Shown: positions 16,772 to 58,917 of the stretch, in pieces
How the letters are laid out: each line of letters starts with the position of its first letter
Numbering within the stretch: the first letter of the stretch is position 1
Assembly: GCA_964573695.1 (NCBI GenBank)
Contig: CAZNKB010000004.1
Span: forward strand, 14,214-78,213
Direction: 5' to 3'
Length of the DNA stretch: 64,000 nucleotides
Source of the DNA: an uncultured Gammaproteobacteria bacterium
GTDB taxonomy: Bacteria; Patescibacteriota; Microgenomatia; UBA10105; UBA927
Position numbers and translations under genes: made by a program
The notes under the pieces: generated by a model
What the model was told of the DNA's origin: nothing
The model's database searches: none
What the model saw: only the letters and a program-made list of their open reading frames with translations

Positions 16772-18139
16772 TCATAAAGCAGAGGCCCATAACTTTTGTT
16801 TTATCCCCGTTACGGCAGAACGCAGCGACTCATTTGTGGACAGTTCTTGGGTAATTGTCTCGACGCCGTGCATAATAGTCGTGTGGTCGCGCCCACCCAA
16901 GGACCCGCCGATGTCGTCGTACGTGAGTCCGAGCTCTGTCTTGGATAAATACATATACACTTGTCTGGGGCGCGCAATCGGGCGATCTCTTTTCGGGCCC
17001 TTAAGCAGTGTCGGTTTAATGTCGAAATACGTTGCAACCGCCTCCAAAAGCTCCTGTGAAGTAACGCGTTTTGCGGTTTTTGTGGGACCCATTGCCGACG
17101 ATTTTGTGTTAAGAAGGGACGAGACAAGCTCCGGTGTAATCGGTTGCGGCTTGGCGGCAAGCTCAGTGGTTAGTCGTCGCAAAAACCCCTCTATTGCTCT
17201 GGCATCCACAACATTTGCTGCGATAATTTGAGCTACGTCGTTGGGCACTGCAAGGCCCAAGGTCTTGGCTTTAATGTTTACAATTGCGGCTCGGAGTTCA
17301 AAGTCGGGCGGAGAGATGTCAACGATGAGCCCGCCCTCAAATCTGCTTCGGAGACGGTCTTCGAGGCGGGCAATTTCGTGTGGCGGCCGGTCGCTCGTCA
17401 ACAACACCTGTCCTCCTTCCCGTAGCACCGCGTTAAACGTATGGAAAAACTCCTCCTGCGCTGTTTGTTTTCCTGCTATAAATTGGACGTCGTCAACCAT
17501 GAGGAGCTCGGCTCCTCGGTATTTTTGTTTAAACTGGCGAGCTGTTTTTGTTTGGATTGCTTCTATTATCTCGTTTAAGAACTCCTCACCCATGCAATAC
17601 ACAACCCGAAGAGACGGCTTTGCAATCAAAAGGGAGTTGGCTATGGCGTACATAAGGTGGGTCTTTCCTACCCCGACCCCACCATAAAGAAACAGCGGAT
17701 TATAAGCATTTGCAATTGTTTTTGAAACCGCGGTTGCTGCTGCGTATGCCAGTTGATTTGTTGTAGAAACGGCGTAATTGTCAAACGTCAAATCAGGATT
17801 GATGTGTAGCTTACGAGCCCGAGAAACAGTGTTGGATTCCCCTTCGAGTACCTGAGCAAACAACGGGCCGGGGCTTCTTTCCTCTGAGTCTTTTTTGGGC
17901 AATACAAGAAAAACGAGGCTGACATTGTTGCCTGTTTTGTGATCAACAATACTTTTGATGAGGCTATAATATCTTGTCTCTGCGAGCGTGCGCATGATAG
18001 GGCTGGGGAATCCAACAGACGCAACGTCCCCGCTTAGGCTGACAAGCTCTGAGTGAGCAAAATGCGTGTGATAGGTGGCTTTAGAAACCGACAACTCAAT
18101 TTCTGCAAGCACCGATTTCCAGAGTCTGTTTAAGTCCAT
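16772..18139 (-). CDS. dnaA: Chromosomal replication initiator protein DnaA
   Basis: Walker A motif GGVGVGKTHLMYAIAN, followed by VDDVQFIAGKQTAQEEFFHTFN and a C-terminal DNA-binding helix-turn-helix. 455 aa. Confidence 0.9.
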   Translation of the reverse strand: MDLNRLWKSVLAEIELSVSKATYHTHFAHSELVSLSGDVASVGFPSPIMRTLAETRYYSLIKSIVDHKTGNNVSLVFLVLPKKDSEERSPGPLFAQVLEGESNTVSRARKLHINPDLTFDNYAVSTTNQLAYAAATAVSKTIANAYNPLFLYGGVGVGKTHLMYAIANSLLIAKPSLRVVYCMGEEFLNEIIEAIQTKTARQFKQKYRGAELLMVDDVQFIAGKQTAQEEFFHTFNAVLREGGQVLLTSDRPPHEIARLEDRLRSRFEGGLIVDISPPDFELRAAIVNIKAKTLGLAVPNDVAQIIAANVVDARAIEGFLRRLTTELAAKPQPITPELVSSLLNTKSSAMGPTKTAKRVTSQELLEAVATYFDIKPTLLKGPKRDRPIARPRQVYMYLSKTELGLTYDDIGGSLGGRDHTTIMHGVETITQELSTNESLRSAVTGIKQKLWASAL

Positions 18140-18247
18140 ATGTGGGGCAAGGAGCAGCGTGTGGATAAGTTGTCCACATAGTAATCACCACGCACTTTTT
18201 TGTCAAGTATCCCAAAGGACCGCGGTTGGCTATGATACACTAAATTC
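18140..18247. promoter_or_regulatory. Region upstream of dnaA with an inverted pair of DnaA boxes. Probable dnaA promoter and/or oriC element.
   Basis: TGTGGATAA at 18160-18168 and TTGTCCACA at 18170-18178 form a near-palindrome, TGTGGATAAgTTGTCCACA. Confidence 0.5.
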
Positions 18248-20257
18248 GTGAGAAGATACTTTATGGCAGTAGCAACGCGCTTACGAACAGCGCTCCCGAC
18301 AGACAGGTTTGTTTTGGTTTTTTTTGTTTTGTTGTTTTTGGCGCTTTTTTTTGGTGATGGAAAACAAGCCGTTGTTGAGGTTTATGGCGCCGCCGTTGTG
18401 TTGATGATTTGGTTTTTTCGTTTGTCACAGATTAACGCCCCTATTAGTAAGCTCCCCCGCCTGGTCGCCAATTCCTGGATTTTTGTGTTTATTGCGGCGA
18501 CACTATCAACACTAACGTCCGATAGTGTTGGATTTTCAATTTCTTGGGGCGTCCGGCTCCTAAGCGGTTTTCTCGTATATCAGGTGTTTTATGATTTGTC
18601 CTCGGCGCGTATTGAGACGGCCGTTTCCCGCAGTATGATTGCGGTCGCCGCCGCCGCGACCACCACCTCGTTGATTTTTGGTCTTTTTCCATGGTTTCAA
18701 TCGGTGCTCCCCTCCATGAACTTAATCAGCAGAAGTTACGGACACAGTCACCTGGCAGATCTTCTTGTTTTTGTTTTTCCCTTGGTGTGGGGAGCCGTTG
18801 TCTCACAACAGTTTTTTCGCGGTGCGGCAGTAATGCTTTTGTATTCGGGGGCGTTGTTGTTTACGCTGGCTCGAACAGCCTGGATTGTTGTTTTTGGAGG
18901 TGTTTTTGTGAGCGCGTTTTACCTGAGGAAAATTCAAATCAAAGCACTCCTTGTTCTCGCTCTTTGTTTTGGGATAGTTTTGTGCGTGGTGTTTTTTGGA
19001 AAATCATACCTGATAAAGAAAGGAACCCCTCTGCAATCCTACACAAGGCCAGAGTCGGTCGCTTTCCGGGTTGAATACTGGAACCAGGCGCTCAAGGGTT
19101 TTATGGAGCGTCCAATTACAGGAAACGGGCCGGGAACGTTTTCTCTCGTTTCCACCCGGTTTCAAAAACATCCACTCTCCGCCTCGTGGTTTGCGCATAG
19201 TCAGCCGCTTCAGTTGCTGGCGGAACAGGGAGCTGTTGGTTTTTTGGCGTTTGGCGGATTATTACTCTCTCATGTTTTGATTTGGTACAAAGAGAAATCG
19301 AAATTTAAAAAGGGCGCCACAACAGAAGCGCTTATTTTGGGGTGTGCTCTTGTTGTGGGGTATGGCCTTTTTGAATACGTTCTTGATTACTTTGTCATAT
19401 GGATCATGCTCTTTGCTGTGGCGGGGTTGATTACCGGGAGAATTGCAGAAAAAAAGGCGGAGCCCGGCGCAATTGGGGTCAAAATCGCACTTATCGTTAT
19501 CGGTGTGTACTATATTCTTTGGGTGAGCAGTAACGGAGCTGCGTTACTTTCGAAAAAATATGACGCCGCGTTTCTTCTCGCTCCTTTTGATGCCCCCCAA
19601 ACACTGCTTTATCTTGATAAAAACACAGGGAATCTAGGTCACACGACCCGGTCGTTGGCGTTGTTTTTTCACAAGAGAAACCCACAGATTCTTGACGCCC
19701 TGAGTAAGGATGCGCAAAAAACAGGAGATCACGACAAGTCGCTAGCGCTTGCTAAGCTCGCTTTGTACGCCGACCCACAAAACTTAGAATTACTATCGCG
19801 ATATTTTTCCTTGCATTCTTTGTCGGGAAGCGTATATACCGGGGAGGAAATGCTGGAGTTTTTGAAGTACGCGCTCCCCGACCGTTATGGATCCTATGCG
19901 GAGTCATTTTCACCGTATGTTAAAGAGATAAATGACGCAACACACGATATTTTTACAACACCCGAGCCGCTTCGCGAGGGGGTTGTGTCCCTTTTATATT
20001 TAATTGGACTAAAACAGCTGCATGATCGTCCCCATATCACACTTCTGTTTTGGAATCTGGCAAAAGACATAAGCCCGGATTACGCGGCCATGTATATAGA
20101 GTTGGCCATGTACTATCAACACATTGAGCACAACGATAAGAAAGCACAGGAGGTATTGCGTGAATGCGCAACTCGAGAGTCTCCTCGGGACCAGTGCCGC
20201 GCCTTTTTTGACACGGAGCTTCTTCCCCCGGGAGATTACTATGAGGCGATGAGGTAG
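18248..20257 (+). CDS. Wzy_C/O-antigen-ligase-family polytopic membrane protein with a C-terminal TPR-like soluble domain
   Basis: At least ten transmembrane helices. Contains HSQPLQLLAEQGAVGFLAF, a Wzy_C-like loop. The C-terminal ~230 aa are helical-repeat rich. Confidence 0.55.
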   Translation: MRRYFMAVATRLRTALPTDRFVLVFFVLLFLALFFGDGKQAVVEVYGAAVVLMIWFFRLSQINAPISKLPRLVANSWIFVFIAATLSTLTSDSVGFSISWGVRLLSGFLVYQVFYDLSSARIETAVSRSMIAVAAAATTTSLIFGLFPWFQSVLPSMNLISRSYGHSHLADLLVFVFPLVWGAVVSQQFFRGAAVMLLYSGALLFTLARTAWIVVFGGVFVSAFYLRKIQIKALLVLALCFGIVLCVVFFGKSYLIKKGTPLQSYTRPESVAFRVEYWNQALKGFMERPITGNGPGTFSLVSTRFQKHPLSASWFAHSQPLQLLAEQGAVGFLAFGGLLLSHVLIWYKEKSKFKKGATTEALILGCALVVGYGLFEYVLDYFVIWIMLFAVAGLITGRIAEKKAEPGAIGVKIALIVIGVYYILWVSSNGAALLSKKYDAAFLLAPFDAPQTLLYLDKNTGNLGHTTRSLALFFHKRNPQILDALSKDAQKTGDHDKSLALAKLALYADPQNLELLSRYFSLHSLSGSVYTGEEMLEFLKYALPDRYGSYAESFSPYVKEINDATHDIFTTPEPLREGVVSLLYLIGLKQLHDRPHITLLFWNLAKDISPDYAAMYIELAMYYQHIEHNDKKAQEVLRECATRESPRDQCRAFFDTELLPPGDYYEAMR

Positions 20258-20326
20258 CGCTTCTTGTTTTTGGCGCACCGTGTAAAATGGTAACGAATAT
20301 TGCCCGCGTGTGCTACACTTTACCGT

Positions 20327-21148
20327 ATGAAAATCGAACTCAAGTCATCCCGAAAGCCATTTATTACCAAAATAGACATTGTTATCTTGTTGTGCATCAT
20401 TGCTCTCCTGGCATCCGTCGGAGTTGCGGTAAAGCTTGTGCTTCAAAAAGACACATTTGTCACTGTTGAGTTATTGGCATCCGGCGGCGAATGGTGGTGG
20501 GGCGTTCCCCCTCCATATTACTGGAACGCAAAAAGCGTCGTGATCGGAGCGAAGGAGTACGATACATTCAAAAAACCAACCGCCGAAATAGTTGACTTGG
20601 TGAAATACGGTGAGGACGATCGGAAGTTTATGTGGATGAGGGTCCGTTTGCGCGCGAAATATAATTATCTTACAAAAGAGTACATTTTCCGTCAGGAGTC
20701 CCTGCAGATAGGTAAAACGATTCACATTGCCCCCAACAATGTCGCGCTGGTTGGGAACGTTGTTGGGATAGAGGGGGTGGGCACCCTGTGGGACACAGAA
20801 TATTTACAAATCACGGGCAAGGCGATACACATAAAAGATTGGGAGGCGGAAGCGATACAAATCGGAGTAAAAGCGGTCGATAGCAAGGGTGATGTTGTGG
20901 CGGAAATACTTGATAAATATACGGAACAAGAAGATATTACGACAACAACATGGACGGGAGAGCCTCTTCACAAAAAAGATCCGAATTTCAAAAATGTGAC
21001 GGTCACAATGAGAATCCGCGCGGTAAAAGACGGCACCATGCGTTATTTTAACTACAACCAGCCGATTTCAATAGGAAACAAAATACGCATACAATTTCCT
21101 ACGACCGCCGTAGAAGTGAATATTATGAGCGCTAGACCCGCACAATAG
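20327..21148 (+). CDS. Hypothetical protein with an N-terminal transmembrane anchor (extracytoplasmic beta-rich domain)
   Basis: ORF with the internal start MKIELKSSRKPFITKIDIVILLCIIALLASVGVAV. No motif was recognised. Confidence 0.4.
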   Translation: MKIELKSSRKPFITKIDIVILLCIIALLASVGVAVKLVLQKDTFVTVELLASGGEWWWGVPPPYYWNAKSVVIGAKEYDTFKKPTAEIVDLVKYGEDDRKFMWMRVRLRAKYNYLTKEYIFRQESLQIGKTIHIAPNNVALVGNVVGIEGVGTLWDTEYLQITGKAIHIKDWEAEAIQIGVKAVDSKGDVVAEILDKYTEQEDITTTTWTGEPLHKKDPNFKNVTVTMRIRAVKDGTMRYFNYNQPISIGNKIRIQFPTTAVEVNIMSARPAQ

Positions 21149-21932
21149 GCTTCTTTTGCGCAACAAAATAAACACTCCACGATGTCAGGCCGGCTTTCCG
21201 AAGTGGAACACCAAGCTCACCCCATGAAATAATCTGTAGCCCCACCCGAGACGCAAAAGCAGCTATTTCGGGAAAAAAATAATATCGAAGAACGTGATCC
21301 TCGCTCACCCGACGGACAGGTCCGTTCTTAGGCTGAATAGTTAGCGAGTGGTGCACGTGAACGGTGTTAGTCAGGCGAGTAAGCGAGGGGGTTTTTTTCC
21401 TGGTAATAGAAAATTCGGGAGTATTATATGATTGCGTCATATTTTTCGGTTTAGAAGAAAGGACCCCCGGGCCATGCCAGCAGTCGAAAATAAAGACTCC
21501 TCCCGGCCTGAGTTGTTTGGCAGCGGTTTTGAAAAAACGTGTCGCGTCGCGATCCGTTGTCATGTAGCTTAGTACGTCAAAAAGCGACACAACGCTATCA
21601 AACTGACCGGTTTTGTTATACGTGAGGATGTCAGAAACCACATAGGAGATCGCCGCCTTTGCCTTGTCTGCCTTTGTTCTGGCGATGTGTATCATGTTTG
21701 CCGATTTGTCGACGCCAGTTACCTCGTATCCAAGGCGTGCAAAGGCAAGAGCGTATGACCCTGTTCCGCAACCAAGATCAAGAAGTGTCGGGTGTTGGAT
21801 ATCGGGAAGAAGTTTTTGGAGCAATTTTGCCATGAGAAAAGTATTTTTCTTTATGTTACGGGAAGCGTATATTGCGTCATAGTATGGCGCTGTTTTCGTA
21901 AACACATTTTTGTTGGTATTTTGATGTTTCAT
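21132..21932 (-). CDS. Class I SAM-dependent methyltransferase
   Basis: LLDLGCGTGSYALAFARLGYEVTGVDKS, the motif I GxGxG. Confidence 0.7.
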   Translation of the reverse strand: MKHQNTNKNVFTKTAPYYDAIYASRNIKKNTFLMAKLLQKLLPDIQHPTLLDLGCGTGSYALAFARLGYEVTGVDKSANMIHIARTKADKAKAAISYVVSDILTYNKTGQFDSVVSLFDVLSYMTTDRDATRFFKTAAKQLRPGGVFIFDCWHGPGVLSSKPKNMTQSYNTPEFSITRKKTPSLTRLTNTVHVHHSLTIQPKNGPVRRVSEDHVLRYYFFPEIAAFASRVGLQIISWGELGVPLRKAGLTSWSVYFVAQKKPIVRV

Positions 21933-23107
21933 GTTTCAAGCGAGGAGATTGTCCGCACGAGGATTGAAGCGGTTGTGGTCCAGTCAAAGCGGGATTTTAT
22001 ATATTGCCTGGCTGCCAGCCTCATTTTTTGACTGGTAGCCGGCGGCAATCGGAAAGCAGAAGATAGCACATCGCCCGCCTGCGTATGGTTATGGGGATCA
22101 ATATAAAATCCGGTTTTCCCATGAAGTATTTCGCGGTCGTCTCCTCTGCTTCGTATTACCGGGGTGCCGCAGGACTGCGCTTCTAAGACCGAAAGACTTG
22201 CTGTAGATCCCCCTGCGCATTCGGGTGAGCCGGTATAAACAAAAAAATCGAGAGACCGATAGAATTTCGGCAAGTCCTGCTCCTTGATGTTCCCAATAAA
22301 CTTTACAAGTTTATCTATTCCGGCGCGCTTCATAAAACGCAGGTATTTTATTTTTACGTCTCGATCAGGGATGCTTTCTGATATTTTTGCTCGCACCGGT
22401 AAGCCCCGGGAATGGAGATCGGCTACGATGCCGAGAAAATCTTCGGTGCCCTTAAATATCGTGTAGTCCGTGCTGTGTCCCAAGAGAAACCTGCGGGTTT
22501 TTAAGCGATGAGACGGCGCGTACGAAAAAGCCGCACAGTCGACGCCGTTAGGAAGATACACGTCAGGCTTTCTTCCGTAGGTATCCATAATATATTGTTC
22601 GACGGACGGGCCAAGAGACGTAAGAATAGCAGAAGCGTTATATGCCCATTTGTCTAAGTGGGCATAGAAAAATTTTGCTACTGCGACACAAAATCGGGAA
22701 AACGGCGTTAAAGAAGATATTCTAATTGGGTCGTAAAAAATAGCGAGCGGCTCAAAACAATGACAAATCGCTTTGGAAGAAATAATGACAGACAAAAAAT
22801 TCATCGGGAAATTTGTTGCAAACAAAACATCACCCTGTTTTACCGTTTTTTTAAGTTGAAAGAAATTTACCATGAGCGTAAGCGGGAGAAGCAGCCAGAA
22901 TAATTTTGGCGGCGTCCATAAGAGCCTCACCTGCACACGCACGTCGTTGTAGCGCCTGCGCCAATACGGACTAATACGGTGAAGGTATAATGTAACATCA
23001 TGAGACTCTCTAACCCGCTTGAGCAGTTCAAAAAGGTATTTCTCCCCTCCTCTGGAATATATGCTTTCCGTGTGTAACACATGAAGGCGTCGCTTTGTCG
23101 AAATCAT
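21929..23107 (-). CDS. Glycosyltransferase family 4 (GT-B, retaining)
   Basis: C-terminal segment FVYTGSPECAGGSTASLSVLEAQSCGTPVI (the E-x7-E / GT1-GT4 motif). The start was moved to the internal Met MISTKRR at 23107 so that it abuts the upstream permease stop. Confidence 0.65.
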   Translation of the reverse strand: MISTKRRLHVLHTESIYSRGGEKYLFELLKRVRESHDVTLYLHRISPYWRRRYNDVRVQVRLLWTPPKLFWLLLPLTLMVNFFQLKKTVKQGDVLFATNFPMNFLSVIISSKAICHCFEPLAIFYDPIRISSLTPFSRFCVAVAKFFYAHLDKWAYNASAILTSLGPSVEQYIMDTYGRKPDVYLPNGVDCAAFSYAPSHRLKTRRFLLGHSTDYTIFKGTEDFLGIVADLHSRGLPVRAKISESIPDRDVKIKYLRFMKRAGIDKLVKFIGNIKEQDLPKFYRSLDFFVYTGSPECAGGSTASLSVLEAQSCGTPVIRSRGDDREILHGKTGFYIDPHNHTQAGDVLSSAFRLPPATSQKMRLAARQYIKSRFDWTTTASILVRTISSLET

Positions 23108-23886
23108 ATTTTTGTAAAAGTCCCGAAACGTTTCGCGACGCGAAACGCCAGGGAAACGGATATCGCTCCGGCGATTGTGTATCCTGCAATAAGCCACACC
23201 GCTTTATCGAGAGACAGATATTGCGCGGGGTATGATCGTATGGATTCGAATACATACGATGAGGGTACAGCATATGATATGTGCTGTAGCACCGGCGGCA
23301 GCGCCGTGCGTTCATAGAACACCAGCGAAAAAATTTGTAGAACAGTGCTCAATAACCAACCTATAAATCCTACCCGTTCTCCGAACAAGCAAATTGCCGC
23401 AATAGCATATAACGATAGCGAGATGCCAACCAATTCAAGCAGGATAATCCAGAGGAATACCTGCGGACCGAACGTGAGCACAAACGACGGATAAATAAGT
23501 ACTAGGATGAGGCCAAGCACCGTTAGAGAGATTATTATTTTTGTCAGCGAAGCGGCGGTAATTCCAGTAATGAGCTCCGTAAGACTTATCGGGGTTATGA
23601 GAAGGCTTTGAATATTTTTTGAAGCGAAGTCATCAATAAATTGGGCGGTCGTTTCCTGAATAATGCGGGCGGTGCAATTCCAGTAAACGATTCCAGTAAG
23701 AATGTTTAGGGTGATGGTCGCCCCCACTTGCGATTGATCAAGCTGCGAGGAGGCAAGAATGGCAAACAAGACGACTTCTATTCCCGGCCAGATCAGTATT
23801 TCAATGATTCGGGCGGGATTTCTCCTCATTGAATAGAGATAGTGCAGGTATAGCCCCAATAGTCTTTTGGGTGAAAAGTTAAACAT
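23104..23886 (-). CDS. ABC-2 type polysaccharide/teichoic-acid exporter permease (Wzm/TagG-like)
   Basis: Six transmembrane helices and ABC-2 topology. Located directly downstream of an ABC ATPase. Start taken at MFNFSP (23886). The longer start at 23913 is also possible. Confidence 0.65.
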   Translation of the reverse strand: MFNFSPKRLLGLYLHYLYSMRRNPARIIEILIWPGIEVVLFAILASSQLDQSQVGATITLNILTGIVYWNCTARIIQETTAQFIDDFASKNIQSLLITPISLTELITGITAASLTKIIISLTVLGLILVLIYPSFVLTFGPQVFLWIILLELVGISLSLYAIAAICLFGERVGFIGWLLSTVLQIFSLVFYERTALPPVLQHISYAVPSSYVFESIRSYPAQYLSLDKAVWLIAGYTIAGAISVSLAFRVAKRFGTFTKI

Positions 23887-24559
23887 AATATTGTCTCGCC
23901 TGAGAAGACACAAGCGGTTTTCCGTCGTAAACCAGTGAACCTTTCGACAGTATGATCATGCGCGTGCAAAACGACCGTATCTCATCGGGGTTTTGCGATA
24001 CGAGCATGGTTATTTTTGAGTGGGTATTTCTGTTTTTGAGATAGTCGTGTGTTTTGTGGGTAAGTATGGGATCCATGTGGGCGGTTATTTCATCGAGCAA
24101 CAATATTTTAGGATTGTTTATGAGGGATTTTGCCAGATTTACAAAAGAATTTTCTCCGGATGAAAGCCGGTAGACTTTTTTGTGAAAGAGCGATTCTTGC
24201 ATGCTGAAATGTTTCCAAAGTGAGATCAGGTACTTCCTTGTGTCCGCTCTATTGTATAGCAACCCATAAGTGGTGAGGTTTTCCATAACGGTAGCGTACC
24301 CGCTTAGCCGCTGGCTGGAAGATGCATAGTTGAGGAGTTGCAGAACTTGTTGGCGGTGCTGAGTCAGTGATAGGCCCGTGATCGAAACGAAGCCCTTGTC
24401 AGGATCCATGAGGCCACTCATGATGTGAAGCAGCGTTGATTTCCCTGCGCCGACTGATCCGGCTATTCCAACAATCTCGCCCGGACGCACGGAAAGTGAT
24501 ACATTTGATAAAATGAGTTTTCTGCCCAGTGTTTTTGCTACAGATGTAAGTTCAATCAT
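23879..24559 (-). CDS. ABC transporter ATP-binding protein (Wzt/TagH-like, short form without a C-terminal carbohydrate-binding domain)
   Basis: Walker A motif GIAGSVGAGKSTLLHIMSG. ABC signature LSSGENSFVNLAKSL. Walker B motif ILLLDEITAHMD. Confidence 0.8.
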   Translation of the reverse strand: MIELTSVAKTLGRKLILSNVSLSVRPGEIVGIAGSVGAGKSTLLHIMSGLMDPDKGFVSITGLSLTQHRQQVLQLLNYASSSQRLSGYATVMENLTTYGLLYNRADTRKYLISLWKHFSMQESLFHKKVYRLSSGENSFVNLAKSLINNPKILLLDEITAHMDPILTHKTHDYLKNRNTHSKITMLVSQNPDEIRSFCTRMIILSKGSLVYDGKPLVSSQARQYYV

Positions 24560-27924: not shown

Positions 27925-27945
27925 GGGACATCCGATACTATACTT

Positions 27946-28287
27946 TTGTATGTTTTCCTCGATAAAGCAACTCGGGACACTTATCACAAAATCAAAAAAA
28001 ATCTGGATTATTCCTATAATTCTTTTTGTTGTTATTGTGGCGCTCCTTATTATCAGCGCTCAGATTTCCCCCCTGCCGGTATTTTTGTACCCCATTTTAT
28101 GATCGCGTTTTTTAAACGGCTCAATGCCTGGTTTATTTCTGTTGTGCTTACGGTTGTCTATTTTATCGGTGTTGGCATTGCAAGACTTCTGTATGTCGTC
28201 GGAGCTCCCAAAGAGACCACAAAGGATTCGTATTGGACACCGGCCGATAAGACACGAACCTCTGATGAATTATTAACGCCGTACTAA
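27946..28287 (+). CDS. Small hypothetical membrane protein
   Basis: 113-aa ORF with two predicted transmembrane segments. Weak support. Confidence 0.3.
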   Translation: MYVFLDKATRDTYHKIKKNLDYSYNSFCCYCGAPYYQRSDFPPAGIFVPHFMIAFFKRLNAWFISVVLTVVYFIGVGIARLLYVVGAPKETTKDSYWTPADKTRTSDELLTPY

Positions 28288-45341: not shown

Positions 45342-45354
45342 TTGACACTGTCAA
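45342..45354. promoter_or_regulatory. Perfect 13-nt palindrome TTGACACTGTCAA in the divergent intergenic region between the TagF-like operon and the kinase gene
   Basis: TTGACA-C-TGTCAA as seen directly in the sequence. It could be a -35 element embedded in an operator. Confidence 0.3.
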
Positions 45355-45420
45355 TTTAACCCTTTTTTATTTGGCGCGAGCTGTGGAGAGTTTCTCGCGG
45401 TAGAATATGGTTTATTTTGT

Positions 45421-46041: not shown

Positions 46042-46062
46042 GAGTGAATTTTACGCGTTGTG

Positions 46063-50669: not shown

Positions 50670-51263
50670 ATGGGAATTATCTATTTGGTACTCACCGGCT
50701 GTTTGTATATCGTTTCCCTTCCTATCCAGGTTATTATCGCTGTCGCAATTTTTTGTAGTTCCGGTTGGCCGGTATTATTTGTGCAGCAGCGGATAGGCAA
50801 AGGTGGTAAGCGATTTATGATGTATAAGTTCCGGACCATGACCAACGGGGCTCATCTCGAGCAAAAAAAGTACTTGAAGATAAATGAGTCGAAAGGCCCG
50901 GTATTTAAGATCCGCAATGACCCGCGGTTTACCAACATCGGAAGGTTTTTGAGTCATACAGGGCTTGACGAACTGCCGCAGCTTTATAATGTCATTCGGG
51001 GCGATATGGCGTTTATCGGCCCCCGCCCGTTGCCCGTTTCCGAGGTGAAAGCACTGGAGCCTTGGATGCGCGTACGGCATACGATTCTGCCCGGCATAAT
51101 ATCCCCCGCCATTCTCACCGGAAAATATCACAAAAATTTTGACTGGTGGATGAAAAGTGATGTCGAATACGCCCAGCAAAAATCGGTACAAGGTGATATT
51201 CGCCTGGTCTTTCACTTTTTGACGTTTATCCTGAGATTGCTATGGAAAGAGTTGTTCCTGTGA
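50670..51263 (+). CDS. Initiating polyprenyl-phosphate phosphoglycosyl transferase (bacterial sugar transferase, PglC/WbaP C-terminal-domain type)
   Basis: WPVLFVQQRIGKGGKRFMMYKFRTMTNGA...GLDELPQLYNVIRGDMAFIGPRP, the hallmark KFRTM and DELPQ motifs. Confidence 0.8.
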   Translation: MGIIYLVLTGCLYIVSLPIQVIIAVAIFCSSGWPVLFVQQRIGKGGKRFMMYKFRTMTNGAHLEQKKYLKINESKGPVFKIRNDPRFTNIGRFLSHTGLDELPQLYNVIRGDMAFIGPRPLPVSEVKALEPWMRVRHTILPGIISPAILTGKYHKNFDWWMKSDVEYAQQKSVQGDIRLVFHFLTFILRLLWKELFL

Positions 51264-51456: not shown

Positions 51457-53640
51457 ATGAGTTTTGAAAGTAACAAGGCACGGTTTAATATCAAGAACGC
51501 TGTCAAGCACGGCGTGATTACCGGTCTTATGGGTTGGGCGGCAATCGAAGGGGTACAGGCGTATCAGCCCAACGCACATCAGGTTTTTGCGGAGCGAGGC
51601 GCTCATACCCAGTTTTACTCCGGTGATGTTGGTTTCGGAACGCATACTGACCGCCCGAACACTATTGATGTGACATATCGCGGAAGATCGGTCGCCGCTA
51701 TCCCCTCCAGTTCATTTGGTCAACCCCAACAAAGCGCAGAGCGCGTCGTCAGACGTGGTGACGGGAGGGCGCATAGGACATCCGACACGAGAAGAACTCA
51801 AGAAACAGCTCAAAACAGTGCCCCCTCGTATGTTCGATTAGAATCCATGCCAAGTTTGGCGGAGGACGTAGTAAATCAAACGACATTGAAAGCGACTCCT
51901 GTTCAGGCACAAATTCCGCCCTGGGTTCCCTTGGTGGTCATGGCGCCGGAAATGATCTATGGCGTTGGAACAACGTTAAACAAAACGCTTATTCATAGCA
52001 GCGCATTACAAAGGCGACTCAATGTGTTCGAAATGAGTTCGTTAGAAGCACGGCTGATTGCAGCTTGCGCGGTACCACTAACGACGATTGCCTCCCCCAC
52101 AGAAAGCCCGGCTCCTATAGCCGTAACGGTGGCTCCTGAAGTAACCGGAACACCGCTCGTAAACGAAGTGTTAACAAGTACTCCGGCACCACGAATAGAA
52201 ACCCTTGTGGCGATAGACGGCTCATATCCTACAAAGGTGTCTCTCGTGGAGTCCCCGAAGGTCTATAGTTACGGAGGACCAGAGGGGCGGGAAAATATGG
52301 ACGAGGTTACGCGCGCGATGTTTGACCGCTATATCGCGGAACTCGCCCGCGAAGGCTTGATCCAAGGATCCAATCCTGAAGCATTGTATCTCGACTTTGA
52401 CAAGAAATTTGATTTTAAGATGTACGTAACTGATCAAATGCTGACCCGGATTATCCAGTATAAATCCGGCGGCGCTTTTTTGGTGCCGGATAACATGGTA
52501 GGTCAGGTGTATCGGGAGCTACAACTTTCGTACAACGATCTGTTTCAGGGAGGGGCTCCTATTGACGTAGGTACAGACAACTTCGGCTTTCGGCAGTTTC
52601 AGGCTGACCGAGTTGGCGGTGTTGGCGCATGGCCTGTGCTTGTGAATGTGGACGAGCAAAGCATACCCGTTTCATGGCTCAATATGGATCGTGGAGGCGC
52701 GGTGACGCCCCTAGAAAGTTCGGTAGCTGTCGTGACTCCTGGCGTAACCCAAGTTCCGCAAGGGGTCGAATCACCCCAGCCTGCTGTCACAGAGCCCGGA
52801 GCGACTCGGGTCGTCACGGAAAACGGGCATGACTATGTCTATACCTACACGAAGCTGGGAGAAACCGAGACTGGCGAAGAACTGTGGGGATACGTGCGGG
52901 AGGCCGGCACGATCATATTATTCGACGGGCCTATAAGAAATTATTTACCATTCCAAATTTTGGTTTCCCAAAATGTCCAAAACGAACGAAATTTCGTTTC
53001 TGTTAATTACACAGATCAAACAGATATTAATAGTCCGAACCCTTGGTTAACCCGCACGCTTAGTCCAGAACTACAAAAGAGGTACTTTGCGGAAGACCCA
53101 AGGAAAGGCACGATGACAGACATGGAAGGATCAAGAGTATTACAAATGGAAATGCTTGGATTAGGAGAAGGTGACCATAAACAAGCTTATTTGGATATCA
53201 TTGTCGCAAACGGTACGCCGGAAGGCGAAGTGAAACGGGTAAAACTGAGCGAAACCACAGGGATTATTCTGACAATCATGACGCCTGAAGATATCGCCAA
53301 GCTCGGAGGTGAGAATGTTATTGAGTTACATGCGCAGGACGGAGACCGTAATTACACGTATTATGTACAGGTATATGACGTGGATGAAAAAGGCAACGAA
53401 CTAGCTAGAGTAGCCTTTAAAGATCCGCTGAACGAAATTCCGGAAGCAGTGTTGCGGAAGGTATTGTTTTCCATACCCGGGAATATGATAGATCACAAAG
53501 ATCAGCGTGAGCAAGGGTTCACCAACGTAGCTCAGATATTTGCGCAATACTCCGCAAAAACAAACGAAACAACGGGTAAGCCGGAAGTTGAGATAGAACT
53601 TTTACCAGATATACCCGTACTTACCACCCCAACTCCGTAG
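51457..53640 (+). CDS. Large hypothetical protein (727 aa). It may be extracytoplasmic, and no catalytic motif was recognised.
   Basis: Long ORF preceded by a TTGACA-N18-TACTAT promoter-like element (51407-51436). Confidence 0.5.
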   Translation: MSFESNKARFNIKNAVKHGVITGLMGWAAIEGVQAYQPNAHQVFAERGAHTQFYSGDVGFGTHTDRPNTIDVTYRGRSVAAIPSSSFGQPQQSAERVVRRGDGRAHRTSDTRRTQETAQNSAPSYVRLESMPSLAEDVVNQTTLKATPVQAQIPPWVPLVVMAPEMIYGVGTTLNKTLIHSSALQRRLNVFEMSSLEARLIAACAVPLTTIASPTESPAPIAVTVAPEVTGTPLVNEVLTSTPAPRIETLVAIDGSYPTKVSLVESPKVYSYGGPEGRENMDEVTRAMFDRYIAELAREGLIQGSNPEALYLDFDKKFDFKMYVTDQMLTRIIQYKSGGAFLVPDNMVGQVYRELQLSYNDLFQGGAPIDVGTDNFGFRQFQADRVGGVGAWPVLVNVDEQSIPVSWLNMDRGGAVTPLESSVAVVTPGVTQVPQGVESPQPAVTEPGATRVVTENGHDYVYTYTKLGETETGEELWGYVREAGTIILFDGPIRNYLPFQILVSQNVQNERNFVSVNYTDQTDINSPNPWLTRTLSPELQKRYFAEDPRKGTMTDMEGSRVLQMEMLGLGEGDHKQAYLDIIVANGTPEGEVKRVKLSETTGIILTIMTPEDIAKLGGENVIELHAQDGDRNYTYYVQVYDVDEKGNELARVAFKDPLNEIPEAVLRKVLFSIPGNMIDHKDQREQGFTNVAQIFAQYSAKTNETTGKPEVEIELLPDIPVLTTPTP

Positions 53641-53694
53641 GTGCTTGTAATTTCCCTTTCACTCCCCTATCCTAACATTAGGGCTATTTATTCT

Positions 53695-54339
53695 ATGAGG
53701 CGCGTGATTATTGTTGTCATCGTTATCATTGTGGTGATCCCTCTTGTGTTTGTTGCCTATAGAAATTGGGATGCTTTACAGGAGGCCGCTTTTAAAGCGA
53801 AATTTCTAACGCGACGAGCTTCCGTACCTAGTCAGAAATATTCTGCCTCAACCAAAACTCCGGAGGCAAGTATCGCGCTCGTCGACACGGCGTTTTTGGA
53901 CTACATTACAGAAACACTGCACGTATATGACGTCGACGCCATTGCCGACCCTGAGCGATATATGGATAAGAAGACAAGCGTTGTTCGTCACACCGTTTCA
54001 CGGCTTACGTTTGAGCTCGTTCCTACGCTTGATCGATATATCGTAGCTCTTGGCGGAAGTGCTGATTTTGCCGGACGCGGCATGTACGCAGTCGAGGGTG
54101 ACACACTTGTAGTCCGGGTATCGCTTAATGAGGCAGAGCTTATAAAAAGCAATGGTCCGGTAAAATTTAATATGGAGGATATGTATCTCGATACTGCACT
54201 TCAAACGCTTCTTTATGCGACTGTTAAACCCGGAGCATCCATACGTCCTGACGAGCTTGCCAAAGTACAAAAAGCAATAAAAGACAATATTACTAGCGGG
54301 ATATTTGTTCGTCCGGTGAAGATAGAAACACAAAAATAA
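53695..54339 (+). CDS. Hypothetical protein with an N-terminal transmembrane anchor
   Basis: The internal start gives MRRVIIVVIVIIVVIPLVFVAY. The ORF-track start at 53641 abuts the upstream stop and is equally possible. Confidence 0.4.
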   Translation: MRRVIIVVIVIIVVIPLVFVAYRNWDALQEAAFKAKFLTRRASVPSQKYSASTKTPEASIALVDTAFLDYITETLHVYDVDAIADPERYMDKKTSVVRHTVSRLTFELVPTLDRYIVALGGSADFAGRGMYAVEGDTLVVRVSLNEAELIKSNGPVKFNMEDMYLDTALQTLLYATVKPGASIRPDELAKVQKAIKDNITSGIFVRPVKIETQK

Positions 54340-54341
54340 CT

Positions 54342-55859
54342 ATGCCACGATTTACCCTTAGGCTTGCTCTCTGTGTCTTCGCGGTGCTGCTTGGAGTTAT
54401 CCTCACCAGGCCGCAGCCGGTGTATGCCAATAGTGTGTGTACGGATAATCCCGTTGCATGCGTCATGATGTGGATTCCCTGGACGCACACGATCGAGTCT
54501 ACGCAGGGTTGCACTACTGATGCGTATGGCATTAGAACATGTCCTACCATACAGGTAACAGACATGGTCGAACGGTGTACTATTCCACAAGCCGGCGGCG
54601 GATCATGCCAGTGTTGTTATGAGACCGGGTGTTATCTGGATTGCGGTAATATTCCTGGTACCGGTGGCGGTGGCGGTGGTAACACAGATCCTCCGCCTGA
54701 TCCTGGCGTGACCCTGACCCCAACTCCCACTCCTGCTCCAGGAACGATCAATATCGTCGCACGTGAGGTGACTAACGACACAACCTGTACTGCTATATCC
54801 AATTCTATAGACCCCGTGGTAGGGACGATATTTGGCTTTACTCCGTCGTCGGCTTCCAGCCCAAGTCCACAGACGCAATTGGACAATACTCCTGTTTCTT
54901 TTACGAATCTACCTATCGGATCATATACGATTACCTATACTCCGCCTGCACCAGAATGGATACTGGCTAACGCGTGTATATATAGAAATGGCGTACTTAC
55001 AGCATACGGACAAAACGCAGACCTTTTTAGCGGAAACACGTTGGAGTGGAGAATAGGGTTTACGAGAGGATCTGCCTGGGTGCAGACTTCGGGAGGAGAC
55101 GTGTATGCAGCGTCCAGCGTCCGCTCGTATATCCCCAATGTCAGCCCGCGAGTATTTAACGCCAATGGTTCAAATGGGTATCCGGGAGTCGTGACGTATG
55201 GCACAAGTTATGATTTTGATCCAGACTGGACACTGACGGGTAGTACATACGTGTCATCGAGTAATTGGATAGTACAGGAAACACAAGCGCCTGTTGATTA
55301 TTATGACTTTTTTTATCGCCGATACGGATCCCCCACTATTCCGACGACAAATTCGGCTTTTGGAAACCTCCTTGCGGTCACGAAGCCTGCAACTAGCGTG
55401 ACGCCCTACTACGTGCTCGGGGATATGACGACAAGCGGAAACTGGATCGTGGGAAGTAATGAATCTATCGTTATTCTTGTGGACGGAAATCTGACCATTG
55501 GTGGAAATATCAATATTACCGGAAACGGGTTCATCGCGTTTATCGTCAATGGGGATATCACCATTTCGGATGCCATAGGGACGACCGTTTCGTCCGTGGC
55601 GCCGGTTGTTGAGGGTGTATACATCACCAACACTACAGGAACATTTGCGACCGGCGCGTCCTTAGCGGCAAGCACCGCAAAATTTGTGGGCAACGGTATG
55701 TTTGTGGCGGGCAACTTTCTGCTCGAGCGCGACCTTGAGATTTCGGGGGGCAACACAACGTATCCTGCAGCGCTTTTTACTTTTGATCCACAACTACTCC
55801 TCACGATGCCCGACTCAATGAAAGACTTGCCAGTCACATGGCAGGAAGTCGCACCGTGA
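54342..55859 (+). CDS. Secreted protein with a signal peptide, a Cys-rich N-terminal region, a Gly/Pro linker and a C-terminal domain with beta-helix-like repeats
   Basis: Signal peptide MPRFTLRLALCVFAVLLGVILT. Linker PGTGGGGGGNTDPPPDPGVTLTPTPTPAPG. Repeat-like strands GNWIVGSNESIVILVDGNLTIGGNINITGNGFIAFIVNGDITISD. Confidence 0.5.
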   Translation: MPRFTLRLALCVFAVLLGVILTRPQPVYANSVCTDNPVACVMMWIPWTHTIESTQGCTTDAYGIRTCPTIQVTDMVERCTIPQAGGGSCQCCYETGCYLDCGNIPGTGGGGGGNTDPPPDPGVTLTPTPTPAPGTINIVAREVTNDTTCTAISNSIDPVVGTIFGFTPSSASSPSPQTQLDNTPVSFTNLPIGSYTITYTPPAPEWILANACIYRNGVLTAYGQNADLFSGNTLEWRIGFTRGSAWVQTSGGDVYAASSVRSYIPNVSPRVFNANGSNGYPGVVTYGTSYDFDPDWTLTGSTYVSSSNWIVQETQAPVDYYDFFYRRYGSPTIPTTNSAFGNLLAVTKPATSVTPYYVLGDMTTSGNWIVGSNESIVILVDGNLTIGGNINITGNGFIAFIVNGDITISDAIGTTVSSVAPVVEGVYITNTTGTFATGASLAASTAKFVGNGMFVAGNFLLERDLEISGGNTTYPAALFTFDPQLLLTMPDSMKDLPVTWQEVAP

Positions 55860-55903: not shown

Positions 55904-57313
55904 ATGACGTTTGAACAACTCCGGCTGAAACATCCCAGGCTTACGTATACCAGATACCGCGTCACCAGAGGAGATTCTTCGCTTGTTATTTCGTACGAAT
56001 TTTTGCTTGAGCCCGATATCAGTCTGCAGTCAGTGGTCACCGTTCCCTTTTCCGGGGTTGTGACGGATACAATATTGGAACCGTTCGTTTTCAATCTCGG
56101 GCTTATCGAAGCGATAAGTTACTGGAAGCTCGCGTGTCCCAGGGAATTTGTGGTCGAAGCCGGTCATCTGACCTCGGAACAAGTCAGGTTCTGGTACGAC
56201 CTATTTATTCACGGACTTGGTGAGTTTTATTATCAAAATCAGATAGATTTCACGATGCCTGATTTTTTGCATATCCGATCATCTGATGCGATTGGGCAGC
56301 ATAACGTATGGGATCAGTCGTTGGGCCAACGGGCGGTGAATAACTCGTCTTTCCCTACGACTCATCAAGCGGCTGATTTGGTTTTGGTAGGTGGCGGCAA
56401 GGATTCAGCTGTAACGTTAGGAATGATGAAACAGGGCGATAGAACGCTCCAAACTATTGTTTTGAATCCCACCAAAGCGGCCAGTGATGTCATAAGGAGT
56501 TCTGGTTTCCCCGCCCCCCTGATAGTGAAGCGTACGTTGGATCCAAAGCTTCTTGACTTAAATGGTGCGGGATATCTTAACGGGCATACTCCTTTTTCTG
56601 CCTACATAGCTTTTTTGGGTGTGTTGGTGTCGTCACTCACGGGTAGTGAAAACGTCATCGTCTCAAACGAAAGAAGCGCCAATGAGGGGAACGTGTCCTA
56701 CCGTGGCATGGAGGTAAATCACCAGTATTCCAAAAGTTTCCGGTTTGAAACAATGTTTCGACAGTATTGTATAGACACATTTGAACAGTGCGGTTCATAT
56801 TTCAGTCTGCTCCGTCCTCTCAATGATATGCAGATAGCGGCAATCTTTGCGACGTATCCTCAGTTTTTTACCACATTTAGGAGCTGTAATAAGGGAGCGA
56901 AGACCGGTGTTTGGTGCGGGGCCTGCGCAAAATGTGCGTTTACGTATCTTACCCTGTCCCCCTATATGTCCCACGAACAGATGCGAATTAGTTTTGGAGC
57001 GGATTTATTTGCCAGTACTGCAATTATCGAACATATCCGAGCGCTGGTCGGGCTCGTTCCGGTAAAGCCGTTTGAATGCGTCGGCACCCGCGATGAGGCA
57101 AAGCTCGCTGTTATATTGGTAGTGGAAAAATATCTCGAAGAACATAGGGAGGTCCCTGAAGGGTTACTCAAGATAAAAAGCGATTTGTTTCTGAGTCGCC
57201 AGGATATTGTGGAATTACGGCGCCTCGTGCTGGACACTTGGGGTGACACATATAATTTACCGCCGGAGTACGTGTCGCTTCTTCGTGCAGTCTGGCAGAC
57301 TATCAGTAGATAG
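55904..57313 (+). CDS. PP-loop ATP-pyrophosphatase-superfamily protein with a C-terminal Cys cluster. Possible MurL-like glycopeptidyl-glutamate epimerase (inference).
   Basis: LVLVGGGKDSAVTLGMM (SGGxDS PP-loop) at about residue 165. The C-terminus has CNKGAKTGVWCGACAKC. The gene is immediately upstream of murD. Confidence 0.5.
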   Translation: MTFEQLRLKHPRLTYTRYRVTRGDSSLVISYEFLLEPDISLQSVVTVPFSGVVTDTILEPFVFNLGLIEAISYWKLACPREFVVEAGHLTSEQVRFWYDLFIHGLGEFYYQNQIDFTMPDFLHIRSSDAIGQHNVWDQSLGQRAVNNSSFPTTHQAADLVLVGGGKDSAVTLGMMKQGDRTLQTIVLNPTKAASDVIRSSGFPAPLIVKRTLDPKLLDLNGAGYLNGHTPFSAYIAFLGVLVSSLTGSENVIVSNERSANEGNVSYRGMEVNHQYSKSFRFETMFRQYCIDTFEQCGSYFSLLRPLNDMQIAAIFATYPQFFTTFRSCNKGAKTGVWCGACAKCAFTYLTLSPYMSHEQMRISFGADLFASTAIIEHIRALVGLVPVKPFECVGTRDEAKLAVILVVEKYLEEHREVPEGLLKIKSDLFLSRQDIVELRRLVLDTWGDTYNLPPEYVSLLRAVWQTISR

Positions 57314-57321: not shown

Positions 57322-58710
57322 ATGCAAAGCAATGAAATTCACGGAAATTCCGTGTTGATTTTGGGATATGGCCGGGAGGGAAAAAGCATCCATGCCTGGC
57401 TACAAAAGTATCATCCGTCTCTTCGAGTGGGTATTGCTGATAAACACGCAAAGACGGAGCTTATGTCGGGGGAAACATACAAAGGAGCTACCGTCTATAA
57501 CGGTGAAGGATATCTTTTTCATTTGTCTGAGTACGATACGATTATCAGAAGCCCCGGTATTTCTCCGTATACATCTGAAATTTCAGATTTTTTGAAAAAA
57601 GGCGGAGTCATGACGTCAGCGACCAACATATTCTTCTCTCTCGTTCCTGGTATCACAGTCGGAGTGACCGGAACGAAAGGAAAAAGTACGACGTCGAGTT
57701 TGATAGCGCATATTCTTTCGTCTCATTTTGATGATGTGCGTCTGGCTGGCAATATTGGTGTTCCCATGCTTGATAGTTTGGCGGCTGCTACGGAGCGAAC
57801 GATTTTTGTGTTGGAGTTGTCTAGTCACCAGTTATATGACTGTCGATATAGTCCGCATATTGGGGTTGTGCTGGGAATCGTATCTGAGCATTTGGATTAT
57901 TATCCTGACTTGATGAGTTACGCCAAGGCAAAATCGAATATCGCCAACAGACAAACCGTCAAAGATTTTCTGATTTATAACCCGATGCATACCGTGGTGC
58001 GTGAGTTGGTGCGATTGAGCCCGGCTACACACGTACTTTATCAGGCGCAAGAGGAAGAAAAAATTCATACATTTCTTCGAAATGGTGAGATCATGGTGAA
58101 GGACAATGGCGAAGCGATACCTGTTATCAAAATGGCAGACGTGCCACTACTGGGGAACGAGGAGAATACTTTGGCGGCAGTAACCGTTGCTCATCTTATG
58201 CGTGTTCCCGTAAAGACTATAGCATCGGCGATTGCTCCGTTTAAGTCTCTCCCTCACCGGTTGGAATTTGTCGGGGAGTACAGAAAAATCCGATTTTATA
58301 ATGACTCGTTAGCCACTATTCCTCAGGCAACAATCCATGCATTAGAGGCATTAGGATCGGATGTGACAACACTTATTGTCGGAGGATATGACCGCGGGAT
58401 CGATTATAGAGAGCTAGGTACATATTTGCGCGGTCACCCAGTGCAAACACTTATCTTATTGCCTGATACCGGCGAGAAAATTTGGGAAGCAATTGGCATG
58501 CCTATTACGGAGACAAAGGCGTCCTCTATTATGAAACCATATCGGGTGGATTCTATGGAAGAAGCGTTGAAGGTAAGCTTTGCGCGTACGCAACAAGGGA
58601 AAATATGCCTTCTCTCCCCTGGGAGCGCGAGTTATAATATGTTCCGTGATTATGCTGATCGGGGTGAGCAGTTCGCTGCATGGGTGAGAAAGATTGGGTC
58701 AGGCGTATAA
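57322..58710 (+). CDS. murD: UDP-N-acetylmuramoyl-L-alanine--glutamate ligase (MurD, or the MurD2 L-Glu-adding variant)
   Basis: Rossmann motif ILGYGREGKS. Mur-ligase P-loop VGVTGTKGKSTTSSLIAHIL, followed by VLELSSHQL. 462 aa. Confidence 0.8.
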   Translation: MQSNEIHGNSVLILGYGREGKSIHAWLQKYHPSLRVGIADKHAKTELMSGETYKGATVYNGEGYLFHLSEYDTIIRSPGISPYTSEISDFLKKGGVMTSATNIFFSLVPGITVGVTGTKGKSTTSSLIAHILSSHFDDVRLAGNIGVPMLDSLAAATERTIFVLELSSHQLYDCRYSPHIGVVLGIVSEHLDYYPDLMSYAKAKSNIANRQTVKDFLIYNPMHTVVRELVRLSPATHVLYQAQEEEKIHTFLRNGEIMVKDNGEAIPVIKMADVPLLGNEENTLAAVTVAHLMRVPVKTIASAIAPFKSLPHRLEFVGEYRKIRFYNDSLATIPQATIHALEALGSDVTTLIVGGYDRGIDYRELGTYLRGHPVQTLILLPDTGEKIWEAIGMPITETKASSIMKPYRVDSMEEALKVSFARTQQGKICLLSPGSASYNMFRDYADRGEQFAAWVRKIGSGV

Positions 58711-58779
58711 ATACGGCATAACACGGGAATTTCTCCTGCCTCCCTTGCGCGAAAAATTGGAATTGAGTATACTTAGGGC

Positions 58780-58917
58780 ATGCCGAAACGAACATATCAA
58801 CCGAAAAAACTGAAAAGAAAACGTGTCCACGGATTCCGAGAGCGCATGAAAAGCGTCAAGGGGCGTTTGGTACTCAAGCGCCGTAGGGCAACAGGACGGA
58901 AAAAATTAACCGTCTAA
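58780..58917 (+). CDS. rpmH: 50S ribosomal protein L34. It is absent from the ORF track because it is only 45 aa long.
   Basis: Translation [45 protein letters not shown] matches the L34 consensus, with a stop at 58915-58917. Confidence 0.85.

Follow-up and report, generated by a model that had tools for sequence, protein, structure and literature searches.

A Cell-Envelope Glycan Locus That Probably Grew Between rpmH and dnaA in Gottesmanbacteria of the Candidate Phyla Radiation

Gene Content of the Split Region

The genes rpmH and dnaA canonically lie divergently within a few hundred base pairs of each other. This spacing is lost in a 64,000-nucleotide stretch (hereafter the window) of contig CAZNKB010000004.1 (assembly GCA_964573695.1, positions 14,214 to 78,213), where the two genes are separated by some 40 kb that hold a large block of genes for cell-envelope glycans. 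The divergent orientation is kept: dnaA (16772-18139, minus strand; Pfam domains Bac_DnaA, Bac_DnaA_C and DnaA_N) and rpmH (58780-58917, plus strand; Pfam) have divergent start codons 40,641 bp apart, with 36 open reading frames (ORFs) in the interval, confirming an earlier reading made from the letters alone (the sequence-only reading) that had placed them about 40.6 kb apart. Both partners retain their other canonical neighbors. The gene for the DNA polymerase III beta clamp, dnaN (15485-16591, minus strand; three of three beta-clamp Pfam domains), adjoins dnaA, and rpmH heads the operon rpmH-rnpA-yidD-yidC-jag (58780-60827, plus strand; Pfam and ORFs), the gene order of which is kept in all relatives. 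Its further members, rnpA (58925-59317), yidD (59290-59559), yidC (59566-60369) and jag/KhpB (60378-60827), likewise lie on the plus strand and were identified by Pfam, apart from yidD, an ORF outside the Pfam scan whose name follows from its location and from tblastn hits in relatives. Homologues of the window DnaA were found with identities down to 69%, several of them labelled as DnaA of Candidatus Gottesmanbacteria (Microgenomates, Candidate Phyla Radiation (CPR)/Patescibacteria), to which these homologues assign the window. In the following, relatives are denoted by the identity of their DnaA to that of the window (96, 93, 88, 85, 83 and 81%) and individual compared loci by L numbers.

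What fills the interval? Between 18.2 and 51.3 kb Pfam assigns a dense set of glycan genes, which comprises two Wzy_C proteins, three GT2 and two GT4 glycosyltransferases, a WecG/TagA-GDSL fusion, a TagF-like transferase, a Bac_transf protein, two ABC-2 exporter pairs, a carbamoyltransferase, a DegT protein, a GFO/IDH oxidoreductase, several methyltransferases and a group of pyridoxal phosphate (PLP) decarboxylases with a nucleotidyltransferase. As two ABC-2 exporter systems occur together with Wzy-type genes, the block probably serves more than one polymer. Three modules can be distinguished, with all genes assigned by Pfam. Module A (18248-28287), next to dnaA, encodes a Wzy_C protein of 669 aa, a DUF4330-like protein, a methyltransferase, a GT4 protein, an ABC-2 permease with its ATPase, a second Wzy_C protein of 473 aa and two GT2 proteins, and contains a small ORF. 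Module B (28290-37892) encodes a carbamoyltransferase, a GDSL protein, the WecG/TagA-GDSL fusion, the DegT aminotransferase, the GFO/IDH oxidoreductase, a GT4 and a GT2 protein and a methyltransferase. Module C (38032-50543) encodes a methyltransferase, an Orn/DAP-type decarboxylase, a protein resembling serine hydroxymethyltransferase (SHMT), a PLP decarboxylase, an aldo-keto reductase, a TagF-like glycerophosphotransferase, a P-loop protein, the nucleotidyltransferase, a further methyltransferase, a second Orn/DAP-type decarboxylase and an ABC-2 transporter pair. From this inventory the product of module C might be a teichoic-acid-like polymer with amino-alcohol phosphate decoration. Altogether three PLP decarboxylases are found in module C beside the SHMT-like enzyme, the aldo-keto reductase and the TagF-like transferase, and the family of the mid-block PLP decarboxylase is rare, with 95 matches only at E <= 1e-20.

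Toward rpmH the block ends, in the window as in relatives, with a gene for a Bac_transf initiating sugar-phosphate transferase (50670-51263, plus strand; Pfam). It is followed on the same strand by three genes without assigned function (51457-55859; 727, 232 and 505 aa, the last with a weak match to DUF7305), a region with a GC content of about 50% and the most deviant tetranucleotide usage of the window. Homologues of the 505-aa protein often adjoin murL or rpmH in many relatives. The remaining interval is occupied by two plus-strand genes for peptidoglycan precursor enzymes. The ORF at 55904-57313 encodes a homologue of the MurL-like UDP-MurNAc-L-Ala-L-Glu epimerase (NCBIfam NF041275, E = 9e-66, below the equivalog cutoff), the orthologues of which in relatives carry precomputed MurL Pfam matches, and murD (57322-58710) matches TIGR01087 with 334 bits, above the equivalog cutoff. 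The MurD2/MurL route provides D-glutamate for peptidoglycan precursors (PMC8788868), and the juxtaposition of a murL-like gene with murD suggests that this alternative route may be used here. The sequence-only reading had described the interval as a glycan island plus murD and a PP-loop gene. The glycan genes and murD stand, while the supposed PP-loop gene is the MurL-like epimerase homologue; the description also passed over the three unassigned genes and over glycan genes that lie outside the gap, 3' of jag (60857-63509).

Ancestral Arrangement and Graded Gap Sizes

Eighty species-representative loci around dnaA were scored with the proteins of the window, a DnaA identity of at least 64% being taken as Gottesmanbacteria-like and one of 42-53% as belonging to other Microgenomates. 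Among the other Microgenomates the start of yidC lies at most 1.5 kb from dnaA in 42 of the 52 informative species genomes, and rpmH and dnaA are typically 0.1-0.3 kb apart. The order in Microgenomates is RNaseH-flippase-Wzy-jag-yidC-yidD-rnpA-rpmH on one side and, pointing away from it, dnaA-dnaN-...-VirB4 on the other. Judged from this distribution of gene orders, adjacency of rpmH and dnaA is the ancestral state of Microgenomates, which implies that DNA accumulated in the spacer between them.

The Gottesmanbacteria-like genomes present a graded series. The genes are adjacent in one of them and separated by gaps of 1.5-10 kb in six, and in the other nine no yidC lies within 9 kb or more of dnaA; the distance between rpmH and dnaA thereby spans a range from 0.1 kb via 2.8-8.4 kb to 40-46 kb. 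Intermediate distances are 2.8 kb in L011, where the gap holds murL-murD only, 3.7 kb in L012, 4.6 kb in L009 and 5.0 kb in L015. The 8.4-kb gap of L024 contains a homologue of the 669-aa Wzy_C gene (Wzy669) together with Bac_transf, murL and murD, and in the 2.5-kb gap of L025 murL-murD is inverted relative to the other genomes. A scan of metagenome contigs centered on yidC added further Gottesmanbacteria with adjacent genes (L099, L105 and L147) and further split ones. The borders of the site are constant in all Gottesmanbacteria loci compared, namely dnaA at one end and (murL-murD-)rpmH-yidC at the opposite end. Many of the database records, among them L011, L012, L016 and L020, are titled 'uncultured Gammaproteobacteria bacterium', and as their dnaA neighborhoods are of the Microgenomates type these titles look mislabelled.

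The genes beyond the two borders are also found in relatives. To the right of jag the window encodes a Wzy_C protein of 443 aa, a Polysacc_synt flippase and an RNase H-like protein (60857-63948, plus strand; Pfam), a trio conserved after jag across Microgenomates; in many bacteria this position is occupied by mnmE-mnmG. Downstream of dnaN lies a cluster resembling a type IV secretion system (T4SS; 6099-14483), with genes for VirD4-like (6099-8282, minus strand), PrgI-like (8405-9700), TraC-like (9707-10360) and VirB4-like (10363-12294) proteins and an M23 peptidase (12300-14483), all assigned by Pfam. Its position is kept in nearly all Microgenomates loci compared. The proximity of T4SS genes to dnaA in Microgenomatia has been published, together with an argument from gene dosage (PMC12102498).

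Conservation and Turnover of the Block in Relatives

The large gap recurs in three relatives. Determined from dnaA and yidC positions paired on single contigs, it measures 46.2 kb in Ga0172375_10000028 (93% DnaA identity), about 44.6 kb in JBFOMQ010000003.1 (85%) and more than 41 kb in ERR13763444_4011 (96%). Both ends of the block are common to relatives. Module A, that is its first 10 kb, is collinear and orthologous in the relatives at 96, 93, 88, 83 and 81%, and the rpmH-proximal end with Bac_transf, the unassigned genes, murL and murD is shared as well. The relatives are more distant than strains of one kind would be, core DNA being about 87% identical to the window in the nearest of them and about 74% in the next. 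The nearest relative (L001) gives one continuous blastn match of 21.4 kb with 86.7% identity, which runs from the T4SS-like genes via dnaN and dnaA into the block, and the identity per kb, with values of 85-86% for dnaN/dnaA and 81-88% for the block, shows no break where dnaA meets the block. The module next to dnaA is vertically inherited and has diverged at the DNA level to the same extent as dnaA and dnaN have.

The middle of the block is less stable. Module B is partly collinear with the 96% relative, with insertions and deletions of single genes, and lies elsewhere or is missing in the relatives at 85 and 83%. The PLP decarboxylase at 41487-42833 has an 83% match on the contig of the 96% relative and no match on the contigs of the 93, 88, 85 and 83% relatives. 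Two genes of the window are without counterpart in the 96% relative, one for a further Orn/DAP-type decarboxylase and one for the P-loop protein; conversely, an additional aminotransferase and a protein of 426 aa are found in the relative but not in the window. Beside dnaA, the 85% relative has the order carbamoyltransferase, Wzy_C, GT4, WecG, unlike the window. Several other lineages with large gaps (L018, L022, L016 and L007) have Wzy_C and GT4 genes adjoining dnaA. Three features of a flexible glycan island are found at this locus: the same bounded site, a content dominated by glycan genes, and differences in this content among related genomes. Between jag and Wzy_C of the 85% relative (L170) lies a gene with bAvd/23S_rRNA_IVP domains (11364-11753), which may belong, as an accessory gene, to a diversity-generating retroelement.

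Origin Signals and Promoters

Where is the replication origin relative to the split? Perfect DnaA boxes (TTATCCACA) occur three times in the 64 kb, starting at 16688, 16753 and 18160, and all three flank dnaA; boxes with one mismatch lie beside dnaA at 16732 and 18170. The sequence-only reading had seen DnaA boxes on both sides of dnaA and none next to rpmH, and a scan of the window for perfect and one-mismatch boxes agrees with it on both counts. The two spacers flanking dnaA make up 0.45% of the window, so that the chance of finding three of three perfect boxes in them is about 9e-8. When one mismatch is allowed, five of the 28 boxes fall within the 288 bp flanking dnaA versus about 0.13 expected by chance.

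The best oriC candidate is the spacer between dnaA and dnaN (16592-16771), with boxes at 16688-16696, 16732-16740 (one mismatch) and 16753-16761. Its AT content is 64%, and that of the stretch 16592-16625 is 74%, compared with 53% for the window. The spacer also contains a promoter-like site (16661 to 16633) that could drive dnaN. A reading of 16601-16620 (CAG TAG TAA TAA GAA) as DnaA-trio-like is speculation only, the nearest good DnaA box being about 65 bp away. Cumulated along the window, the GC skew reaches its lowest value at 16-17 kb. Moreover, the GC skew at third codon positions, read on the plus strand, is negative in ten of ten genes left of dnaA regardless of their strand; dnaA itself and 27 of the 31 genes between 18.2 and 51.3 kb have positive values, which places the change of sign between dnaN and dnaA. 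Of 55 related loci, 42 have a negative GC skew upstream of dnaA and a positive one downstream of dnaN, and the bipartite layout of DnaA boxes with a box-rich, AT-rich dnaA-dnaN spacer recurs in the roughly 80 related loci scored. Within the window the assumption of an origin at dnaA is thus supported, and boxes and skew within these 64 kb make the dnaA-dnaN spacer the likely oriC.

On the other side of dnaA lies its putative promoter and operator region (18140-18247, minus strand), with a -35 hexamer TTGACA at 18206-18201, a spacer of 17 nt and a -10 hexamer TACTAT at 18183-18178. An inverted pair of DnaA boxes (18160-18168 and 18170-18178) directly abuts the -10 hexamer of this strong promoter-like site, and the succession CTTGACAA-N17-TACTAT followed by TGTGGACAACTTATCCACA is found upstream of dnaA in every aligned Gottesmanbacteria genome, compact or split. 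The inverted pair would be an autoregulatory operator of dnaA. An alternative role as the second half of a bipartite origin was judged less likely, since the boxes overlap the -10 region of dnaA.

The spacer in front of rpmH (58711-58779, plus strand) contains no DnaA box and has a -10-like GGTATACT/TATACT box. A GGTATACT-like -10 box about 7-10 nt before the rpmH ATG is always kept in the alignment with relatives; the promoter scan called no rpmH promoter at its thresholds, so that the -10 box is defined by conservation in the alignment. In the window (58760-58782) the end of the TATACT box and the ATG are separated by about 6-7 nt, as they are in relatives, and so short a distance suggests a leaderless transcript or one with a very short leader. 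No terminator was found between murD and rpmH. In compact genomes the promoters of rpmH and dnaA stand back to back with overlapping -35 hexamers, TTGTCAAG on one strand being CTTGACAA on the other, and the extra DNA of split genomes accordingly sits between the two -35 regions.

How Did rpmH and dnaA Come Apart?

The arrangement is best explained by an old, lineage-specific and long-resident but still flexible cell-envelope glycan locus that grew in the spacer between rpmH and dnaA, a reading to which we assign a probability of roughly 0.75. The distance of 40.6 kb would be due to surface-sugar genes that accumulated between the two as a variable block in the course of a long time. The starting point would have been a short spacer with back-to-back promoters. 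Insertion between divergent promoters breaks no operon, which may be why the site tolerates it. In present Gottesmanbacteria the spacer ranges from empty, through murL-murD alone (2.8 kb), to 40-46 kb with genes for sugar-modifying enzymes, glycosyltransferases, ABC-2 exporters and Wzy-type proteins. The predicted origin machinery, namely the box-rich and AT-rich dnaA-dnaN spacer and the promoter with its pair of DnaA boxes, has stayed with dnaA, and the rpmH operon has kept its own -10 box and now lies 40 kb within the right replichore, where it is still co-oriented with replication. The middle modules gain, lose and swap genes even among the closest relatives. Proximity to the origin may in addition confer a gene-dosage benefit.

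The sequence-only reading had left the choice between an island inserted at the origin and an unusual organisation of the lineage. The latter is supported, as the 40-46 kb split is found in the 96, 93 and 85% relatives. The former holds in the historical sense that the spacer gained DNA from an ancestral state of adjacency, but a recently inserted island is not supported. An integrative element or something similar that recently landed beside the origin could account for the typical accessory content with glycosyltransferases and transporters, for genes on both strands (59% of the coding bases on the plus strand), for a GC content 2-3 points under that of the left flank and for the middle modules missing in several relatives. 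However, Pfam scans of the window proteins revealed no integrase, transposase or recombinase domain, a search of the window found no tRNA genes, an Rfam scan gave no match, and as border or flanking repeats only short matches at chance level were detected. The tetranucleotide signature of the block resembles that of the flanks (correlation 0.90, compared with 0.84 between left and right flank), and 27 of the 31 genes have an equilibrated replication skew. In all 17 of the 17 minus-strand genes of the block the third-position skew fits the present replichore and orientation, which requires either long residence or a donor locus with the same position and orientation. Furthermore, the block is not absent from close relatives: it is present with 40-46 kb in those with 85-96% DnaA identity, the middle modules alone varying, and the same arrangement is seen where core DNA is about 74-87% identical, with flat identity across the junction. 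The comparisons of synteny and composition that the sequence-only reading had itself proposed thus tell against an island within the clade, as relatives share the arrangement and no compositional discontinuity is found, and a recent arrival is largely refuted and very improbable. Even less credit can be given to a chimeric metagenome contig. The window does come from a metagenome-assembled genome, but L001 is collinear over 21 kb across dnaA into the block; L173, a 10.4-kb contig assembled independently from another run, is 100% identical to 33206-43617; and on contigs from JGI, NCBI and Logan the distance between dnaA and rpmH exceeds 41 kb, measuring 44.6-46.2 kb on those for which both ends could be located. 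As independent contigs have the same junctions, an assembly error is excluded.

A more serious competitor, albeit an unlikely one, is rearrangement rather than insertion into the spacer. One or a few inversions or translocations would have displaced the rpmH operon or imported a ready-made glycan cluster from elsewhere in the genome, with nothing but local turnover afterwards. The inverted murL-murD of L025 demonstrates that local inversions occur here. The compact L006 and the large-gap L010 are neighbors on the DnaA tree, as could be expected if an entire block had moved in or out, and a source within the genome would yield the native composition and skew that are observed. Against rearrangement stands the graded series of gaps with nested content, from murLD through an added unassigned gene to added Wzy669 and Bac_transf and then to 40 kb or more. 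Both flanks, moreover, keep order and orientation in every genome compared, and the skew of the 17 minus-strand genes fits their present orientation, an agreement that would have been lost in a recent inversion across the origin. It could also be imagined that dnaA does not mark the replication origin in this lineage and that the split is unrelated to the origin. Some bacteria, E. coli among them, have their oriC at a distance from dnaA, 13 of the 55 related loci lack a simple change of skew sign, and the sequence considered comprises 64 kb. This proposal is nevertheless highly implausible, given the sharp switch of third-position skew exactly between dnaN and dnaA, perfect DnaA boxes solely in the flanks of dnaA, an AT-rich dnaA-dnaN spacer and the conservation of this layout in relatives.

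Several observations weigh against gradual growth of a long-resident locus, or at least temper confidence in it. The GC content of the block (45.3%) is 2-3 points below that of the left flank (48.4%; right flank, 46.5%). The 669-aa Wzy_C protein (18248-20257) is 83% identical in L001 (96% DnaA identity), 45% in L168 (93%) and 43% in L002 (88%), with its neighbors declining gradually, and this drop fits either allele replacement or very fast evolution. Not all large gaps are filled with glycan genes, as L021 contains sulfatase and phosphodiesterase genes and L017 unassigned genes. In a neighbor-joining tree of DnaA large gaps occur in several subclades and the compact L006 (4.6 kb) stands beside the large-gap L010, suggesting both gains and secondary losses; the tree is based on a single gene without support values, and the number and direction of expansions and contractions are uncertain. 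Relatives were read as 10-kb flanks, so that the central 20-27 kb of the blocks were seen in the 96% relative only. The skew evidence spans 64 kb, from which a global minimum is not demonstrable. Finally, it is by analogy with O-antigen and capsule loci and with SAR11 that the highly conserved flanks, dnaA on one side and murD-rpmH-yidC on the other, could be regarded as anchors of homologous recombination for cassette exchange, of which the drop in Wzy_C identity gives the single hint.

Relation to Known Systems

The closest published analogue is hypervariable region 2 (HVR2) of SAR11, in which about 50 genes for glycosyltransferases, methyltransferases and membrane proteins occupy a fixed site that splits the rRNA operon of a streamlined genome (PMC3448164). 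Both loci lie at a fixed site between conserved genes and split a normal arrangement, 23S and 5S rRNA there and rpmH and dnaA here; both hold glycosyltransferases, methyltransferases and membrane proteins in small streamlined genomes, with a content common to the closest strains and differing among distant ones. Unlike HVR2, the present site is a divergent promoter spacer beside oriC and not an rRNA operon, the dnaA-proximal 10 kb are stable across DNA divergence of species level or greater, some Gottesmanbacteria are without any block, and the variation is known from genome comparison rather than from a gap in metagenomic recruitment. A further-reaching proposal would make the rpmH-dnaA spacer a selected, recombination-serviced hot spot of glycan diversification throughout Gottesmanbacteria, a CPR counterpart of HVR2. 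This we regard as doubtful. If it were true, the flanks would be anchors for cassette exchange, proximity to the origin would provide gene dosage, and the driver would be phage pressure or recognition of partners or hosts in presumed episymbionts.

O-antigen and capsule loci are likewise bounded by core genes, as between galF and gnd in E. coli or between dexB and aliA at the cps locus of S. pneumoniae, and recombination in their flanks is documented. They share with the block the Wzy-type proteins, flippase or ABC-2 exporters, an initiating Bac_transf protein, GT2 and GT4 glycosyltransferases and sugar-modifying enzymes, as well as conserved flanks around a content that varies between relatives. 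The differences are that cassette exchange is here only inferred, that the present block, with two ABC-2 exporter systems beside Wzy-type genes, probably makes more than a single polymer, and that the hosts are CPR bacteria.

As to the origin itself, Bacillus subtilis has the arrangement rnpA-rpmH next to dnaA-dnaN, with clusters of DnaA boxes both upstream and downstream of dnaA. The window resembles this type in the divergent dnaA and rpmH, the adjacency of dnaA and dnaN, the order rpmH-rnpA-yidD-yidC-jag, the DnaA boxes on both sides of dnaA and the AT-rich stretch in the dnaA-dnaN spacer. It differs in that rpmH is 40.6 kb away and the upstream boxes consist of one inverted pair at the -10 region of dnaA. 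In E. coli, rpmH and dnaA are adjacent and oriC lies elsewhere. Synteny of the origin region is broken over about 40 kb there as here, but in the window it is rpmH that has been displaced, whereas the origin signals remain beside dnaA.

Significance

In the literature no paper was found on a split between rpmH and dnaA in Patescibacteria. Phenomena of this type are already known, and the general significance of the case is modest. What it adds is that one of the most conserved neighborhoods of bacteria has been opened repeatedly in a single CPR lineage with the origin signals unmoved, and that nature provides a graded series of intermediates with gaps of 0.1, 2.8, 4.6, 8.4 and 40-46 kb. For work on Gottesmanbacteria it counsels caution, as rpmH is not a reliable marker of the origin and an accessory-looking block adjacent to dnaA is not automatically contamination or a recent island. 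For the biology of CPR bacteria it points out a fixed and easily located site at which surface-glycan genes accumulate and vary, and such a site bears on the way in which these tiny and probably host-dependent bacteria face their partners and phages.

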